A stretch of DNA of 64,000 bases, from assembly GCA_958296135.2 (NCBI GenBank), contig CATQHZ020000001.1, positions 576,001 through 640,000 on the forward strand, in the 5' to 3' direction. Positions 40,988 to 63,603 of this stretch are shown here, in pieces. The translations under genes and the position numbers were made by a program. The stretch is from an uncultured Poribacteria bacterium. GTDB taxonomy: Bacteria; Poribacteria; WGA-4E; WGA-3G. Each line of letters starts with the position of its first letter. Position 1 is the first letter of the stretch. The notes beneath the pieces were generated by a model. The model ran no database searches, was not told the origin of the DNA, and saw only the letters and a list, made by a program, of their open reading frames with translations.

Positions 40988-42007
40988 TTAGGGCTGTCCG
41001 GTCTGGATGTTTACCGCATTAAGTTTATTACGCAACGTCTTTCGGCTAATGCCCAAAACCGCCGCGGTTTTCGTCTGATTTCTACCCATTCGTTCGTAGG
41101 TATCTAGAATATACCGCTGTTCTGCTTCCGCCAGCGTGAGTCCAATTGGGGACATTTGCTGCAAGTGCTCTTGAGAGGACTGAATGTCTGTGCGTTGGAG
41201 ACTAGGTTTCCGAATTTTAATGGGGAGGTGCATCGGTAAGATAACGTCTCCTTGCGCGAAGACGATTGCACAGATGACAACTTTTCTCAACTCTCGGACG
41301 TTCCCGGGCCATGGGTAACTTTCAAGGAGTGCAAATGTCTCCGGTGCGATGCCGCCGGCTTCTCTCTGTAAACGTTGGCTCTCTTTTTCCAGAAAGTAGT
41401 CTACCAACAACGGGATGTCCCCGGTTCGTTCCCGTAGCGGCGGCAAATAGATACTAAACCCGTCCAACCGATAATAGAGATCTGGGCGAAAGGTGCCGGT
41501 CCTCACCGCTTCATCAAGGTTGCAGTTGGTGGCTGCCACAATTCGGATATCCACGTAAATCTTTTTTCTGCCGCCGATGTGTTCAATTTCGCCGCTCTCT
41601 AGGGCGCGGAGCAATTTGGGCTGAAGGAGGAGTGACAGTTCTCCGATTTCATCAAGGAATAATGTTCCCTTGTGTGCCTGTTCAAACTTACCGTGATGCT
41701 CTTTCTTGGCGTCCGTATATGCTCCGGCATCATGCCCGAACATTTCGTTCTCCATGAGTTCTGGGGGAATTGCTGCACAGTTCACCGTAATTTTCTGTGC
41801 TTGTGCGCGGCGGCTGTTTTCGTGCAAGGCATCTGCTACGAGCTCCTTGCCGGTGCCCGTTTCGCCGTGAATCATCACCGAGACAGGTAAGTCCGCGAAC
41901 AGATCGATTTGTTTGAGGATTTCGAGAATCTGTGGGCTGTTGCCAATGATGTCGGCATAATTGCCCTTCAGGGCATCTCTGGCGTTTTTCTGGGTTCTGT
42001 TTTTCAT
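40988..42007 (-). CDS. Sigma-54-dependent Fis-family activator lacking a sensory domain
   Basis: GETGTGKE, GAYTDA, LFLDEIG, FRPDLYYRL, WPGNVREL, C-terminal HTH; AAA domain starts at about residue 19. Confidence 0.93.
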   Translation of the reverse strand: MKNRTQKNARDALKGNYADIIGNSPQILEILKQIDLFADLPVSVMIHGETGTGKELVADALHENSRRAQAQKITVNCAAIPPELMENEMFGHDAGAYTDAKKEHHGKFEQAHKGTLFLDEIGELSLLLQPKLLRALESGEIEHIGGRKKIYVDIRIVAATNCNLDEAVRTGTFRPDLYYRLDGFSIYLPPLRERTGDIPLLVDYFLEKESQRLQREAGGIAPETFALLESYPWPGNVRELRKVVICAIVFAQGDVILPMHLPIKIRKPSLQRTDIQSSQEHLQQMSPIGLTLAEAEQRYILDTYERMGRNQTKTAAVLGISRKTLRNKLNAVNIQTGQP

Positions 42008-44354: not shown

Positions 44355-45209
44355 TTACCGCCGTTTGATGGCTCCCCAGGTGGTGGTTAACTTCCCCCAG
44401 GGCCGCACCTCAAAAGAGTTGCCATGGTAGGTGAGATGGTGCCCATTCCCGCTCGCATCCATCAGACGCTCCGCCTCACCCCAACCATCAAAATGCCAAA
44501 GTGCAACCGTGTGCGCATCCGGTTCAAAAGGCGCACGCGGCACCTCAATCGTCTCTTGCCAAAAATGATGCTCCAAGTTCTCCCGGGGATACCGGACGAT
44601 AGAGGAGATGCGCACCTCGTCAATCACGCCCTCGGAGAAAATCGTGGAAGGCGGACCGTCTCTGGGAGCCGGGTCAAAACCGAGCACGGGCTCGCGGGCC
44701 CCGCCAATACACAGCGGCCCCGGCGTGTTTATAAAGCCCCGAAATCCATCCAGTGCCCCCTTGAGAACGGTATTCGCGACTTCCTGACGATATTCGGCCT
44801 CAAACATCACCGCAATATAGTGCCATTGATTTATCGGCAGCCTCCCATCAGGACTCACAAGGAATCCCCATGAACGGCTATGCCCCGGGCCGTTCATCCT
44901 GAGGTTCACCTGGTCTTCGGCCAGTCCGATTTCATAACTGCCGGCTTTGTAAACGAGGGCCCATATCTCGCCCGGCTCCCCTGTCGTGTCGTTAACATCT
45001 TTCAGGGGCCGTTTGAGATAAAACCACAATTCCAAGGTGAACCCAGTCCGGCCCAGTCTGAAATCCAAGTCAAGCCGGTCAGGGATAAAGGCATACTCCC
45101 CGGGCGCGCCAATCGTGAAGTATCCGCCGCCGGCAGGCGAGGGAGGAATAGCTGGGGCCGAGGCAACGCCCCCCAGTCCTAACAGTATGAGAAAAACGAG
45201 AACGCGCAT
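44355..45209 (-). CDS. Secreted LamG-like protein
   Basis: Signal peptide; FTLELWF, QWHYIA, IDEVRIS, TVALWHFD; tail VRPWGKLTTTWGAIKRR. Confidence 0.85.
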   Translation of the reverse strand: MRVLVFLILLGLGGVASAPAIPPSPAGGGYFTIGAPGEYAFIPDRLDLDFRLGRTGFTLELWFYLKRPLKDVNDTTGEPGEIWALVYKAGSYEIGLAEDQVNLRMNGPGHSRSWGFLVSPDGRLPINQWHYIAVMFEAEYRQEVANTVLKGALDGFRGFINTPGPLCIGGAREPVLGFDPAPRDGPPSTIFSEGVIDEVRISSIVRYPRENLEHHFWQETIEVPRAPFEPDAHTVALWHFDGWGEAERLMDASGNGHHLTYHGNSFEVRPWGKLTTTWGAIKRR

Positions 45210-45328: not shown

Positions 45329-45344
45329 AGCAAGTTTCGTGCCA
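45329..45344 (-). promoter_or_regulatory. Sigma-54 (-24/-12) promoter
   Basis: TGGCACG-AAAC-TTGCT on the minus strand. Confidence 0.85.
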
Positions 45345-45684: not shown

Positions 45685-46761
45685 TCATGCATCTCTCTCC
45701 TGAAAAGTTCTCAATTTGTTGCGCAAGGTAGGGCGGCTCACGTCTAATACCGCCGCGGTCTTCGCCTGATTTCCGCCCATCCGTGCGAGGGTTTCCAAGA
45801 TGTATATCTTCTCTACCTCCTTCAAGGTTAACCCGACAGGGATAGTGACGGTTGGCTGGTTTTGGGCTGCGAGAACCGCCTGGTTCGTGTCGGGTGCATA
45901 AAGTTTTTGCGGTAAGTGCTCCGGCAAGATAATTTTGCCTTCGGAGAGGATGAGTGCGTGAGTGACGACCTTTTTCAACTCTCGGATGTTTCCGGGCCAG
46001 GCGTAATCTTGGAGAAGTTGGAACGTCTGCGCGGCGAATCTGCCTATGGGTTCATCGGTGGCTGGCCGGTGTGCGTGCGCCTTTAACCGCTCGCGCAACG
46101 GTGGCAGCCGCATAGAAAATCGCGTGAGTTGCGGTGGTTCTTGTGAGAAGTGTTCCACTAACTCTCGGATATCCGCTTTCCGTTCGCGCAGCGGCGGCAG
46201 AGAAATGGAAAACCCCTCAAGTCGGTGATAAAGGTCTGCCCGAAATGCCCCTTCGTGAACGAGTTGCTCTAAGTTATGGTTAGTTGCGGCGATAATTCGG
46301 ACATTGACAGGCATCATAGTTTTGCCGCCGACGCGTTCAATCTCGCCTTCTTCTAGCACGCGTAGCAACTTGGGTTGGAGCGACAGGGGCAGATCGCCGA
46401 TTTCATCGAGGAACAGTGTCCCCTTGTCGGCGCGTTCAAACTTTCCGATATGCTGCCGCTTCGCATCGGTAAAGGCCCCCTGCTCATGCCCAAACAGTTC
46501 GCTCTCTAGGAGGTTCTCCTGAAGCGTTGTGCAGTTGACGACGACGAGAGGTGCTGTTGCGCGGGGGCTGTTATTGTGCATGGCGCGCGCGACTAATTCC
46601 TTGCCTGTCCCGGTCTCGCCGTAAATCATCACCGAGACATCATGTCTTGCGAGCAACTCAATTTTTGTCAGGACTTCGAGAGTCTGTGGGCTGCTGCCGA
46701 TGATGTCGCTGTAATCCCCGTGCAATGACTCTCTTGTCCTCTCTGCTGTTTCATGTTGCAT
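45685..46761 (-). CDS. Sigma-54-dependent Fis-family activator lacking a sensory domain
   Basis: GETGTGKE, ESELFGHEQGAFTDA, LFLDEIG, FRADLYHRL, WPGNIREL, HTH; internal duplicated LPPLRER. Confidence 0.93.
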   Translation of the reverse strand: MQHETAERTRESLHGDYSDIIGSSPQTLEVLTKIELLARHDVSVMIYGETGTGKELVARAMHNNSPRATAPLVVVNCTTLQENLLESELFGHEQGAFTDAKRQHIGKFERADKGTLFLDEIGDLPLSLQPKLLRVLEEGEIERVGGKTMMPVNVRIIAATNHNLEQLVHEGAFRADLYHRLEGFSISLPPLRERKADIRELVEHFSQEPPQLTRFSMRLPPLRERLKAHAHRPATDEPIGRFAAQTFQLLQDYAWPGNIRELKKVVTHALILSEGKIILPEHLPQKLYAPDTNQAVLAAQNQPTVTIPVGLTLKEVEKIYILETLARMGGNQAKTAAVLDVSRPTLRNKLRTFQERDA

Positions 46762-46924
46762 GACTTATCCTGTTTCGTTTATTTCCCCGTTAGGCGCGGT
46801 TTGTAAGCGCGCACCGGTTCGGTTGCGCGCTTACGGGCGGATAGAGACATCCGCCGTGACACGCCCTGTCGCATACTGAAACGTGAGCAAAGCGCGCCTA
46901 CGGTTGGCCTCTAGGGCTGTCCGA

Positions 46925-49006
46925 TTATTGCAAACCGGTTGCAACCAGAGTGATGCGCACCGGTTCTTCGGCTTTCGATTCATCTTTGTAGTTAAGCCCG
47001 AAGATAACTTGTGCATCGGATGCGGCTTTCTGGATGCCCTGCATTGCGCTATCCAATTCGGCCATCATGAAATCCTGTGGTGCTACCAATTCTACCAGGA
47101 TTCCGGTGGCTTTGGCGAGATTCGCGCCTTCGAGGAGCGGCGAAGAGATAGCGTTTTCTGCTGCGATACGTCCGCGTTCCTCGCCTGTCGCCTGTCCGAT
47201 GCCTATCGCTGTCTTGCCCGGGACCCGTAGGACAGCTTCAACATCGGCGAAGTCAACGGTAACTTCATGCTCGAAATTCACGATGTTCCCGGTGATGAGT
47301 TGCACGCCTCGGCTGAGCATCTCGTCGCTGATGCGGAAGGCATCCTGCATTTCGATGTTCGCGTCACCGTCGTCACCTTCGTCAATGAGGTGTTGATTGG
47401 CGACAACGATGAGGGAATCAGCAGCGGTTTGGAGTTCTTTCACGCCGTTTTCGGCTTGCGTTGCGCGCGGTTCTCCCTCAGCCTTGAAGGGCCGTGTGAC
47501 TATTGCAACGGACAACACGCCGTATCTGCGTGCGAGCGATGCGATGCGCGGCGCGGCCCCGGTGCCGGTGCCGCCGCCCATGCCGGCCACGATGAGCACC
47601 ATGTCTGCGTCTGAGACGAGGGTTTCTAGTGCTGCGCTATCTTCTTCTGCGGCCTTTCGCCCAATGTCGGGGTTGCCGTCTGCACCAAGTCCGTTGGTGG
47701 CATCCTGCCCGAGCTGGATGGGTGTGACATCGTCGTAGGTGTCCAAGGCCCCGCGGTCTGTGTCAACGGCATAAAATTCGAGCCCGGCTAACCCAGCTTC
47801 ACGCATGCGGTTGACAGCGTTTCCGCCGGCGGTGCCGACACCGATAACTTTCACTGTTACTGGCGCAGCCTTCAATTTCATCGGCATGATGAGATAGGTT
47901 TGCCGTGATTCACCTACCGGCTTCGCGATGCCGGGATTTAATTCACCGGAGCAGTTCAGTTTGACGCTTTCGGCCTCCATACGTGAGAGTGCTCCCATCA
48001 GCAGCCGTGCATCAAACCCGATGCGCAGGTTCTTCGTGCAAGAGTCAACAGGGACGAGTTCGTGTGCTCTCCCTAGTCCCGGGGTCTTCGCCGAAATCCG
48101 AATGTGCTTATCCGCTTCGTTGATTTCCAAGCAGACGACACAGCCTTTTTTCGGTTCCGATAGCATGGAGATGCGGCGGACTGCCTGCAGCATCGCTTCG
48201 CGGTTGAAAACGGTGCGGACTTCCATCGCCCCGGGTTTCGGGATAATTTTCTCATAGTCCGGGTATTCGGCATCTATCAAGCGCGTTGTCAGCGTGGTGT
48301 GCTCATCGGCGACAATCAGACACCGCGTGGTGTTAAACGGGACTTGACTTTGGAAGAACGAAACGTTCACCGAGTCAGCCTGGGCGAAGGATTGGGCGAT
48401 TGCCTGCACGGCTTTGAGCGGCACAATGAAGCCTGTCACTCCTGGCGGGGGTGTCAGCGCGTCACAATGCACAAGTGCGAGTTGGCGGCCGTCCGTTGCG
48501 ACTACCTCCGTTCTATCTTCTCGGAAGTTAAAATAGAGCCCGCACAGCATTTTCCGTTCTTTTTCCTCGGTGGATGCTGCGAATTCGGTTTTGTGGATAA
48601 CGTCGCACAGCGTCTGAGGGTGGATGTCCAAGGTTTCCCCTTCAAACGTCGGGAGTGTCGGGAATTCTGTTGCGGGTAGCCCGATAATTGTGTAAACGCT
48701 GTTCCCACACGCCAACTTCACCAAGTTGTTCGTCGGCGTGGTGAGGTGGATATCCAGTTCTGGTAGCCCCTTAACGATGTCCGCCAATTTCTTGGCAGGG
48801 ACGGTAATCGCGCCATCTTCCTGAATAGTCCCATCGACTTTGGTGCGCACGCCTACTTCCGAGTCTGTGGCGGCGCATTCAATTTTCTCCGCGTCCGCCT
48901 TGATGAGGACGTTTGAAAGCATCGGCGAAGTATTGCGCCCATTTGCAATACCCTGCACTATCTGCAGCGAGTGCAAGAGGGGTTCCTTTTGAAACGTTAA
49001 TTTCAT
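46925..49006 (-). CDS. dnaN-ftsZ: Fusion protein: DNA polymerase III beta clamp (aa 1-378) plus FtsZ GTPase core (aa 379-693)
   Basis: Clamp: PMLSNVLI, ATDSE, GAITVPAKKL, EFPTLP, VATDGRQL, RLIDAEYPDYEKIIP, IGFDARLL, YLIMPMKL. FtsZ: KVIGVGTAGGNAVNRM, GLGADGNPDIGRKAAEE, AGMGGGTGTGAAP, VTRPFKAEG, VDFADV, AISSPLL, ITLVATGL. No stop or RBS at the junction. Confidence 0.93.
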   Translation of the reverse strand: MKLTFQKEPLLHSLQIVQGIANGRNTSPMLSNVLIKADAEKIECAATDSEVGVRTKVDGTIQEDGAITVPAKKLADIVKGLPELDIHLTTPTNNLVKLACGNSVYTIIGLPATEFPTLPTFEGETLDIHPQTLCDVIHKTEFAASTEEKERKMLCGLYFNFREDRTEVVATDGRQLALVHCDALTPPPGVTGFIVPLKAVQAIAQSFAQADSVNVSFFQSQVPFNTTRCLIVADEHTTLTTRLIDAEYPDYEKIIPKPGAMEVRTVFNREAMLQAVRRISMLSEPKKGCVVCLEINEADKHIRISAKTPGLGRAHELVPVDSCTKNLRIGFDARLLMGALSRMEAESVKLNCSGELNPGIAKPVGESRQTYLIMPMKLKAAPVTVKVIGVGTAGGNAVNRMREAGLAGLEFYAVDTDRGALDTYDDVTPIQLGQDATNGLGADGNPDIGRKAAEEDSAALETLVSDADMVLIVAGMGGGTGTGAAPRIASLARRYGVLSVAIVTRPFKAEGEPRATQAENGVKELQTAADSLIVVANQHLIDEGDDGDANIEMQDAFRISDEMLSRGVQLITGNIVNFEHEVTVDFADVEAVLRVPGKTAIGIGQATGEERGRIAAENAISSPLLEGANLAKATGILVELVAPQDFMMAELDSAMQGIQKAASDAQVIFGLNYKDESKAEEPVRITLVATGLQ

Positions 49007-49130
49007 TTTTCAAATCTCCTATTTCTCAGTAGTTATCAAAAGAGGATGCCGCAGAACGAGTCCGGTAGGCGCGGTTTGTAAGCGCGCCTACGGGGGTGAG
49101 TCGGCATCTGTCCTAACATATCTTAATAAT

Positions 49131-49146
49131 AGCAATTTTCGTGCCA
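49131..49146 (-). promoter_or_regulatory. Sigma-54 (-24/-12) promoter of dnaN-ftsZ
   Basis: TGGCACG-AAAA-TTGCT on the minus strand; AGGAGA RBS near 49015-49020. Confidence 0.88.
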
Positions 49147-63546: not shown

Positions 63547-63603
63547 AGCAATTTCTATGCCAAAAGTTGGCACGCTGCAAAAGATATAGCAAATTGCGTG
63601 CCA
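63547..63603 (-). promoter_or_regulatory. Two tandem sigma-54 promoters upstream of hsp20
   Basis: TGGCATAG-AAA-TTGCT (63547-63562) and TGGCACG-CAAT-TTGCT (63588-63603). Confidence 0.8.

Follow-up and report, generated by a model that had tools for sequence, protein, structure and literature searches.

We analysed a 64,000-nucleotide stretch of DNA from an uncultured Poribacteria bacterium (GenBank assembly GCA_958296135.2, contig CATQHZ020000001.1, forward-strand positions 576,001 to 640,000; hereafter the window), in which a beta sliding clamp (DnaN) and the division GTPase FtsZ are encoded as one protein. The fusion gene occupies 46925..49006 on the minus strand as a single unbroken open reading frame (ORF) of 693 codons plus stop, with an ATG start. 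A first, sequence-only reading of the window had described this 693-aa clamp-FtsZ ORF, giving no strand, and the ORF list, Pfam and NCBIfam all bear it out. From the N terminus, the protein carries clamp domain I (aa 1-119, 48650..49006; PF00712, DNA_pol3_beta, E 2.4e-25), clamp domain II (aa 128-250, 48257..48625; PF02767, beta_2, E 6e-21) and clamp domain III (aa 254-378, 47873..48247; PF02768, with Pfam beta_3 at 254-376, E 5.7e-15), which ends in YLIMPMKL. A six-residue linker, KAAPVT (aa 379-384, 47855..47872), delimited by the alignment of 13 homologous clusters, leads directly into the FtsZ GTPase domain (Pfam Tubulin, PF00091, aa 385-542, 47381..47854, E 3.3e-39), which contains the signature GGGTGTG (aa 477-483, 47558-47578). 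Alignment with FtsZ places the T7 loop, TVDFAD where canonical FtsZ reads NVDFAD, at aa 583-588 (47243..47260), and the FtsZ_C domain follows at aa 597-693 (46928..47218; PF12327, E 3.8e-19), ending in ATGLQ and then at once in the stop codon. All of these features lie on the minus strand, and the five strings quoted in the sequence-only reading (YLIMPMKL, KAAPVT, GGGTGTG, TVDFADV and ITLVATGLQ) are all present in the translation.

All five Pfam domains score over their curated cut-offs. The NCBIfam dnan model (TIGR00663) gives 247.5 bits against an equivalog cut-off of 137.65, and the ftsZ model (TIGR00065) gives 295.4 bits, barely over its equivalog cut-off of 295.2. The clamp half aligns with solved clamps end to end, to its last residue (best E 7.8e-45), and the FtsZ half aligns with solved FtsZ structures over the full core (best E 2e-71); the peptide ...MPMKLKAAPVTVK... 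spans the junction between them. What the FtsZ half lacks is the C-terminal linker and the conserved C-terminal peptide. The genome's own FtsZ (P0270) runs about 120 residues beyond the fusion's end point, carries the ...DWDIPAFLRVQKR... peptide and finishes ...DWDIPAFLRVQKRGGKSGK, a comparison that confirms the earlier description of a tail-less core. An AlphaFold2 model built on an alignment of 60 rows has a mean predicted local distance difference test score (pLDDT) of 87.1, and the linker is ordered in it (pLDDT about 85-90 over residues 371-390). We also considered a separate FtsZ made from an internal translation start and rejected it: by eye, no Shine-Dalgarno-like sequence is seen close before either of the two Met codons at the junction. 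Judged by its domains and scores, the protein belongs to both parent families, each of them known, while the architecture that joins them is undescribed: in our literature searches no paper described a natural protein of the clamp-FtsZ kind, as the sequence-only reading had supposed.

The architecture recurs well beyond the window. A protein homology search returned 13 clusters at 90% identity (P0001-P0013), each with all five domains, with lengths of 687-710 aa, 63-80% identity to the window protein and contigs of up to 5.6 Mb; pairwise identity among the clusters falls to 61%. Three clusters that we examined hold 41, 18 and 21 members, mostly full length, drawn from ENA, Logan and NCBI assemblies. 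The junction is six residues long in 13/13 clusters, running from ...MPMK[LI] to FtsZ strand S1, [VI]K[VI]IGVG. The join at 47872/47873, which the sequence-only reading had singled out for checking, is bridged in each of three runs of one sample by one contig covering 46800-49200; this sample may be the assembly's own source, and the 13 clusters, coming from other assemblies and showing the same junction, provide independent support. A further run (X5), which contained only a small share and covered 4/30 bins, was set aside. The locus is syntenic over about 20 kb with a sister genome (G066), in which the neighbouring genes are 85-95% identical to those of the window's genome (G000) and the fusion 78-80%. 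The 13 clusters, the fixed junction, the synteny and the many members together rule out an assembly artefact or a chance ORF, and show the fusion to be a real, conserved, lineage-specific gene. It is hidden by current annotation in the one named public record, RKU30103.1, a 625-aa protein in which a contig end cuts the fusion and which is labelled only 'DNA polymerase III subunit beta [Candidatus Poribacteria bacterium]'.

The distribution of the gene is narrow. In a survey of 176 species genomes from 31 genera of the phylum, full-length fusions appeared, among the matches listed, only in the window's genus, and the other listed matches covered one half of the fusion only; the list comprises the best 150 matches, with 553 further, and a full-length fusion would rank at its top. 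The full-length fusion matches are those of the window's genome, of G066 (710-aa frame, 80% identity) and of G065 (80%, cut by a contig end). In an exhaustive search of 1.84 billion cluster representatives, the best 150 matches include a single 50% cluster that spans both halves, the fusion's own (P0012). A DNA pattern specific to the junction gave 0 matches in the JGI metagenome collection; as a control, it gave 1 match in the window and matches in 8/27 loci, every one a copy of the gene from G000, G065 or G066. Four further proteins with two matched stretches each (P0121, P0130, P0131 and P0142) were considered as distant fusions and discarded as FtsZ-FtsZ tandems: each has two complete FtsZ cores in tandem within 731-840 aa.

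Each half goes back to a duplication of a housekeeping gene of the lineage itself. In a clamp tree of 34 rows from a quick search, which includes 6/13 fusion clusters, the fusion clamps form one clade (Shimodaira-Hasegawa-like approximate likelihood ratio test, SH-aLRT, 99) that is sister to the genome's own DnaN (99), to which the fusion clamp is 67% identical. In an FtsZ tree of 38 rows, the fusion FtsZ halves likewise form one clade (100), on a long stem of 0.52, inside a group with Poribacteria FtsZ (100). From both trees it follows that dnaN and ftsZ of this lineage were duplicated and fused once, head to tail. The canonical genes are present separately, in keeping with the paralogy proposed in the sequence-only reading. 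The canonical ftsZ (P0270, 441 aa, with linker and C-terminal peptide) lies at G000:C1:4804558-4805946 in the dcw cluster, where it adjoins genes that we read from their translations, without a family scan, as ftsA, ftsQ, murC and murG; the standalone dnaN (P0271, 370 aa) lies at G000:C1:458063-459175. The dnaA gene (C1:13393-14673), gyrB (C1:8148-10607) and the canonical ftsZ are all far from the window (C1:576001-640000), which upholds the earlier statement that no dnaA, gyrB or dcw genes are nearby; recF, also named there, was not searched for. However, the standalone dnaN itself adjoins neither dnaA nor gyrB, so the absence of replication neighbours is, on its own, no sign of paralogy in this genome.

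Other clamp copies were seen alongside these. A third, distant clamp gene lies at C2:106962-108074 on a 143,886-bp contig of the window's genome, where genes between C2:99000 and C2:117000 were read by eye as thymidylate synthase (thyA), dTMP kinase, queC/queE, SSB, dUTPase and a GIY-YIG protein; we take the contig to be, in all probability, a large phage or some other extrachromosomal element sorted into the same bin. In the same family, the matches listed include 3-6 to clamp or FtsZ in many genomes (G067-G175), and adjacent dnaN pairs occur, for example at G068:C1:2707224-2709483 and G167:C2:4290106-4292523. Clamp paralogy seems to be common in the phylum.

To gauge selection we used Nei-Gojobori estimates of the ratio of nonsynonymous to synonymous substitution rates (dN/dS), with G000 versus G066 as the main pair. 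The ratio is 0.235 for the clamp half and 0.239 for the FtsZ half (amino-acid identity 0.80 in each), against 0.071 for standalone dnaN (identity 0.92), 0.039 for the canonical ftsZ core (identity 0.95) and 0.26 for the disordered ftsZ tail. For the fusion halves, the remaining species pairs give values of 0.23-0.36. The dS of the fusion is about 0.45-0.53: many synonymous changes have accumulated while the frame was preserved, and the gene has stayed open under constraint in both halves. Selection on each half is purifying, though relaxed.

In the clamp half, 48/75 columns conserved in 14 standalone clamps are retained in all 13 fusion clusters. The motif ATDG.xLA of domain II (ATDGRQLAL in the window protein) and the C-terminal MPM(K)L are kept in 13/13, with the terminal Arg replaced by Lys in 13/13; we take ATDG.xLA and MPM[RK]L to be the motifs of the partner-binding pocket. 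The DNA-facing channel is also mostly preserved. Of the 11 inner-helix columns with a basic residue in 70% or more of the 14 standalone clamps, with helices assigned from the AlphaFold2 model, 9 stay basic in at least 11/13 fusion clusters, and the median count of inner-helix Lys plus Arg is 10 in the fusions versus 12 in the standalone clamps.

The FtsZ half combines an intact nucleotide signature with changes in several loops. As reference we used 71 columns that are at least 93% conserved in 135 canonical FtsZ sequences; 53/71 are retained in all 13 fusion clusters, among them GGGTGTG (its last Gly is Val in 1/13 clusters), PF..EG, the N position and the last Asp of T7 (13/13). We take PF..EG and the N position to be loops T5 and T6, and the other loop names and the E. 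coli residue numbers used here are likewise our own assignment. The changes fall in T1 (G392 changed in 12/13 clusters, N396 to Lys or Glu in 11/13), T2 (N415 to Asp in 13/13), T3 (G443 to Asp or Arg in 12/13, P446 to Ser in 10/13) and T7 (N583, corresponding to N207, to Ser or Thr in 13/13; D585, corresponding to D209, to Gly in 12/13), together with three positions to which no loop was assigned: F471 (changed in 13/13), M593 (to Leu in 13/13) and A599 (to Thr in 13/13). The common T7 type in the family is SVGFAD. The window protein, with TVDFAD, also departs from the NxDFAD form of this synergy loop, and it is the least degraded member, since it keeps N396 and D585 and is the only cluster with both T7 aspartates. 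The earlier claim that both T7 aspartates are kept is thus correct for the window genome and does not extend to the family, where the first Asp is Gly in 12/13 clusters and the Asn is Ser or Thr in 13/13.

Residues N207, D209 and D212 are described as highly conserved T7 residues in an excerpt of PMC8456036. In the excerpted part of PMC3684127, T7-loop mutations disrupt polymerisation and spare GTP binding, and E. coli FtsZ D209A expressed in yeast forms aggregates, not filaments. A search with Tubulin_2, the TubZ-type family, gave no match on the window protein at E up to 0.01, and no TubZ-type adaptor or centromere-like repeats were seen near the fusion gene. A predicted complex of the canonical FtsZ core (residues 10-325), the fusion head (379-693) and 2 GTP scored 0.02 against a mark of 0.32, in a run without controls, and counts neither for nor against an interaction. 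As a clamp, the fusion has the family domains, the pocket motifs and the basic channel; as an FtsZ, it lacks the canonical T7 loop, the C-terminal peptide and a dcw location.

The gene sits outside dcw, between an FGE-sulfatase/BNR gene and a gene for a sigma-54 activator. Upstream, 124 nt before the ATG, lies a predicted sigma-54 -24/-12 promoter, TGGCACGAAAATTGCT (49131..49146, minus strand), an exact match to TGGCAC-N5-TTGCW. Exact matches are enriched here, with 3 in the window versus 0.07 expected and 21 in the genome (5.19 Mb) versus about 5 expected. The element is conserved in G066 (L006 9890-9905), 96 nt before the ATG, in a leader that is otherwise poorly alignable. Directly downstream of the fusion and on the same strand, the domain scan identifies the activator (45685..46761, minus strand; AAA+, lid and HTH_8, no sensor domain), which is syntenic and 85% identical in G066. 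Given the exact, conserved promoter and the activator gene next to the fusion, expression very probably depends on a signal acting through sigma-54 and is not constitutive, which fits the 'inducible' role suggested in the sequence-only reading.

The surroundings hold further elements of the same kinds. A second exact sigma-54 promoter (45329..45344, minus strand) lies 119 nt upstream of a LamG-like gene (44355-45209, minus strand) with a secreted-looking product, and the third exact element of the window is at 63588-63603 (minus strand). A second sensor-less sigma-54 activator (AAA+, lid, HTH_8) is encoded at 40988-42007 (minus strand), 4 kb further on; the two activators are 52% identical to each other. 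Between the fusion and the first activator, the spacer (46762..46924, 163 nt, minus strand) folds into three strong hairpins resembling repetitive extragenic palindromes (REP), with no T-tract (minimum free energy -69.4 kcal/mol, z -4.4), and a scan of the spacer found no terminator-like site, and so no intrinsic terminator, on the gene's strand. REP-like GC-rich palindromes flank the fusion at 49065-49091 and 46780-46900. The upstream one, GTAGGCGCG-N9-CGCGCCTAC in the 5' leader (49065..49091), is missing from the sister genome's leader, where the upstream region has several other REP-like elements. These palindromes are highly repeated in the metagenome contigs, at depths of 500-2700 versus 105, with spurious 'skips 2206' joints. 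A known anti-phage defence system was also considered and set aside: PADLOC models match the fusion protein with 0 families, and on the neighbouring activator only the generic AAA+HTH parts of the RtcR/PspF models match.

The fusion can be placed against several known systems. It resembles DnaN in its three DNA_pol3_beta domains, its pocket motifs and most of its basic channel residues, and differs in carrying a 315-residue C-terminal FtsZ module, in being about 3 times less constrained than standalone dnaN (0.235 vs 0.071) with an altered RYxLNG motif, and in being an extra copy under predicted sigma-54 control. It shares with FtsZ the GTPase and FtsZ_C domains, GGGTGTG and its nesting with Poribacteria FtsZ, and is set apart by the missing tail, the location outside dcw, the changed T7 and T1-T3 loops, the stem of 0.52 and the fusion to a clamp. 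Extra standalone FtsZ copies without the tail that binds membrane anchors exist in the magnetotactic FtsZm and the 'FtsZ-like' families, and none of these is known to carry a DNA clamp. Unlike TubZ and PhuZ, the fusion head nests within FtsZ, has no Tubulin_2 match and has no adaptor-like neighbour that we could see. SlmA, Noc and the MatP-ZapB-ZapA terminus linkage are DNA-bound systems that tell FtsZ where the chromosome is; SlmA, Noc and MatP recognise particular DNA sequences, and their effect passes through the FtsZ tail or through adaptors. With these the fusion shares a functional analogy only and no homology, since it would ride DNA topologically and use an FtsZ head. The E. coli protein CrfC, as presented in an excerpt of PMC6374313, offers another likeness, a self-associating GTPase on DNA-loaded clamps with a role in nucleoid positioning; CrfC is dynamin-like and bound non-covalently, whereas the fusion head is an FtsZ and covalent.

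A second kind of clamp fusion turned up in the same phylum. A large family of proteins of about 575 aa in Candidatus Poribacteria, which join an extracytoplasmic function (ECF) sigma factor (Sigma70_r2/r4) to a complete clamp, accounts for 92/120 best matches (P0014-P0120). Like the clamp-FtsZ protein, they join a clamp paralogue to a non-replication protein; in contrast to it, the sigma factor is N-terminal and the clamp C-terminal, and they are absent from the window's genus. The clamp-activated sigma factor of phage T4, in which the clamp gp45 works with the sigma-like gp55, is an analogy for these sigma-clamp fusions. Their clamps form a separate clade (99) in the clamp tree, which rules out a common origin with the clamp-FtsZ fusions and indicates that the two arose independently. 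In the window's genus, the ECF sigma regions closest to the fusion sigma (48%; G000:C1:2686955-2687521 and G066:C1:403593-404159) start frames of 975-1025 aa, that is, they are joined to another large C-terminal region. Neither clamp or polymerase III terms nor the name Poribacteria occur in the main text of PMC7826278, which reclassifies the ECF sigma factors; its supplements, with the ECF groups, may bear on these sigma-clamp fusions.

What the fusion does is a matter on which we offer a tentative proposal: it may be an inducible, clamp-borne modulator of FtsZ assembly that rides on DNA and serves as a local brake or cap. The clamp half would form a head-to-tail ring dimer on DNA, with two FtsZ heads on its C-terminal face. 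The heads have kept the GTP-binding (top) face, have lost the membrane-anchor tail and have a damaged T7 (bottom) face; from this combination we infer that they could engage FtsZ without being able to sustain normal turnover, docking on the cell's FtsZ subunits or filament ends and not supporting hydrolysis-driven filament turnover. Under the sigma-54 promoter the protein would be made on signal only, as a DNA-borne modulator of Z-ring assembly and most likely a local brake or cap, and it would mark clamp-carrying DNA, replicating or freshly replicated, for the division machinery. Two published observations bear on this scheme. In an excerpt of PMC4284645, E. coli clamps, once loaded, remain on DNA for about 195 s, so that many are left behind the fork. 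In the excerpted part of PMC4337567, a dnaN-egfp replacement at the native locus of M. smegmatis grows like wild type; going by the gene name, the EGFP would be at the DnaN C-terminus, and a bulky domain placed after DnaN need not abolish clamp function.

A bolder form of the brake or cap proposal, which we regard as rather doubtful, reads the fusion as a 'Rosetta stone' for a direct clamp-to-FtsZ pathway, in which clamps on replicated DNA would be the sensor of a nucleoid-occlusion or replication-division checkpoint. The ring would then act topologically, without sequence-specific binding, and the FtsZ capping heads would stop Z-rings until the clamps are cleared.

Several observations weigh against the proposed brake or cap. 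The crippled T7 face is not uniform in the family, as the first T7 Asp and the T1 Asn, lost in most relatives, are still present in the window copy. With a predicted template modelling score (pTM) of 0.62, the AlphaFold2 model does not settle how the modules are oriented to each other. In the clamp half, RYxLNG has become RKMLCG in 11/13 fusion clusters, including the window protein (domain II), and of the four fusion rows printed, P0001 and P0013 have Arg at the position of Arg-24, mapped by the numbering of an aligned solved clamp, where P0002 and P0003 have His or Leu; this drift may impair loading and DNA contact. The clamp loader works on the C-terminal face of the clamp, and a head only six residues past the clamp C-terminus may hinder it sterically. 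Contigs of two of the three runs of the sample (X3 and X4) have an extra T after 48757 (TT to TTT), a frameshift at codon 83 of the clamp, while the X1 contig from the same sample and the window are without it; the insertion may be a real minor allele or an error and is a caveat for this genome, the frames in the family being intact. The sequence-only reading had itself raised the prospect of a one-off under relaxed selection: the gene is no one-off, as the 13 clusters attest, but the relaxation is real (dN/dS about 0.24, constraint 3-6 times weaker than on the canonical genes), and the fusion occurs in one genus of 31, so whatever its role, relatives can do without it.

Among the alternatives, a positive role in tethering or segregation survives best, although we think it unlikely. 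Here the DNA-borne ring would anchor filaments of the FtsZ type, built from the heads alone or from heads and FtsZ together, and so keep chromosomes in place or move them with respect to the division site, much as a covalent DNA-adaptor plus tubulin-like-filament system or a terminus-to-Z-ring linkage might. The intact GTP signature, the mostly basic clamp channel, the short and fixed linker and the window copy with both T7 aspartates are all compatible with this, and assemblies bound to clamps offer an analogous precedent for organising DNA. Dynamic GTP-driven filaments are nevertheless hard to square with the loss of both the T7 Asn and the first Asp in 12/13 clusters; the protein gave no Tubulin_2/TubZ-type match, and neither an adaptor nor centromere-like repeats were seen near the gene; and sigma-54 control suggests conditional, not housekeeping, use.

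The heads might instead act away from DNA. With the clamp as a mere dimerisation scaffold, the induced protein would be a bivalent FtsZ binder that sequesters, caps or cross-links FtsZ in the cytoplasm, in effect a self-derived division inhibitor comparable to stress-induced FtsZ inhibitors. We judge this distinctly unlikely. It would account for the change of RYxLNG to RKMLCG (11/13), for His or Leu at Arg-24 in 2/4 rows and for the lower Lys plus Arg median (10 vs 12), and it is compatible with a head six residues from the loader's face and with sigma-54 control. Yet 9/11 basic channel columns are kept and the clamp dN/dS of 0.235 equals that of the head, which is hard to explain if only the dimer interface mattered, and the three clamp domains are full length in 13/13 clusters.

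A target in replication, not division, appears improbable to us. The fusion would then form mixed rings with the housekeeping clamp or compete for its partners or loader, as an inducible replication brake in which the bulky GTP-binding head blocks the partner-binding face of the clamp. The fusion clamp is indeed the closest paralogue of the genome's DnaN and has kept its pocket motifs, and its head follows immediately on the C-terminus that forms the pocket; what such a regulator leaves unexplained is why the blocker should be an FtsZ core with 53/71 positions, a GTP signature and purifying selection. Very improbable, finally, is a young fusion with little or no function, drifting to loss or in part a product of assembly or polishing here: its presence in one genus of 31, the selection relaxed relative to the parent genes, the eroded near-universal catalytic-loop residues and the +T frameshift in 2/3 runs of one sample would suit it, but dN/dS is about 0.24 in both halves at a dS of 0.45-0.53 without loss of the frame, 13 clusters and dozens of independent assemblies have the frame at full length, at pairwise identities as low as 61%, the linker length is invariant, and promoter and synteny are conserved.

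The coupling of replication to division is a long-standing question, and physical links between the two are poorly known outside a few model species. The carriers described here are a small group of uncultured sponge-associated bacteria, and the scope of the finding is bounded by this narrow clade and by the relaxed constraint on the gene; within it, the fusion is a hint of a physical link between replicated DNA and the division machinery. Seen alongside the sigma-clamp fusions of sister lineages, it suggests that extra copies of the clamp have been put to new use in this phylum, as platforms for functions outside replication. Two emblematic proteins of replication and division are covalently joined in a product that is under selection, which provides a concrete, testable molecule, and even if its role should prove local to these symbionts, it would be a natural tool for placing FtsZ on DNA.

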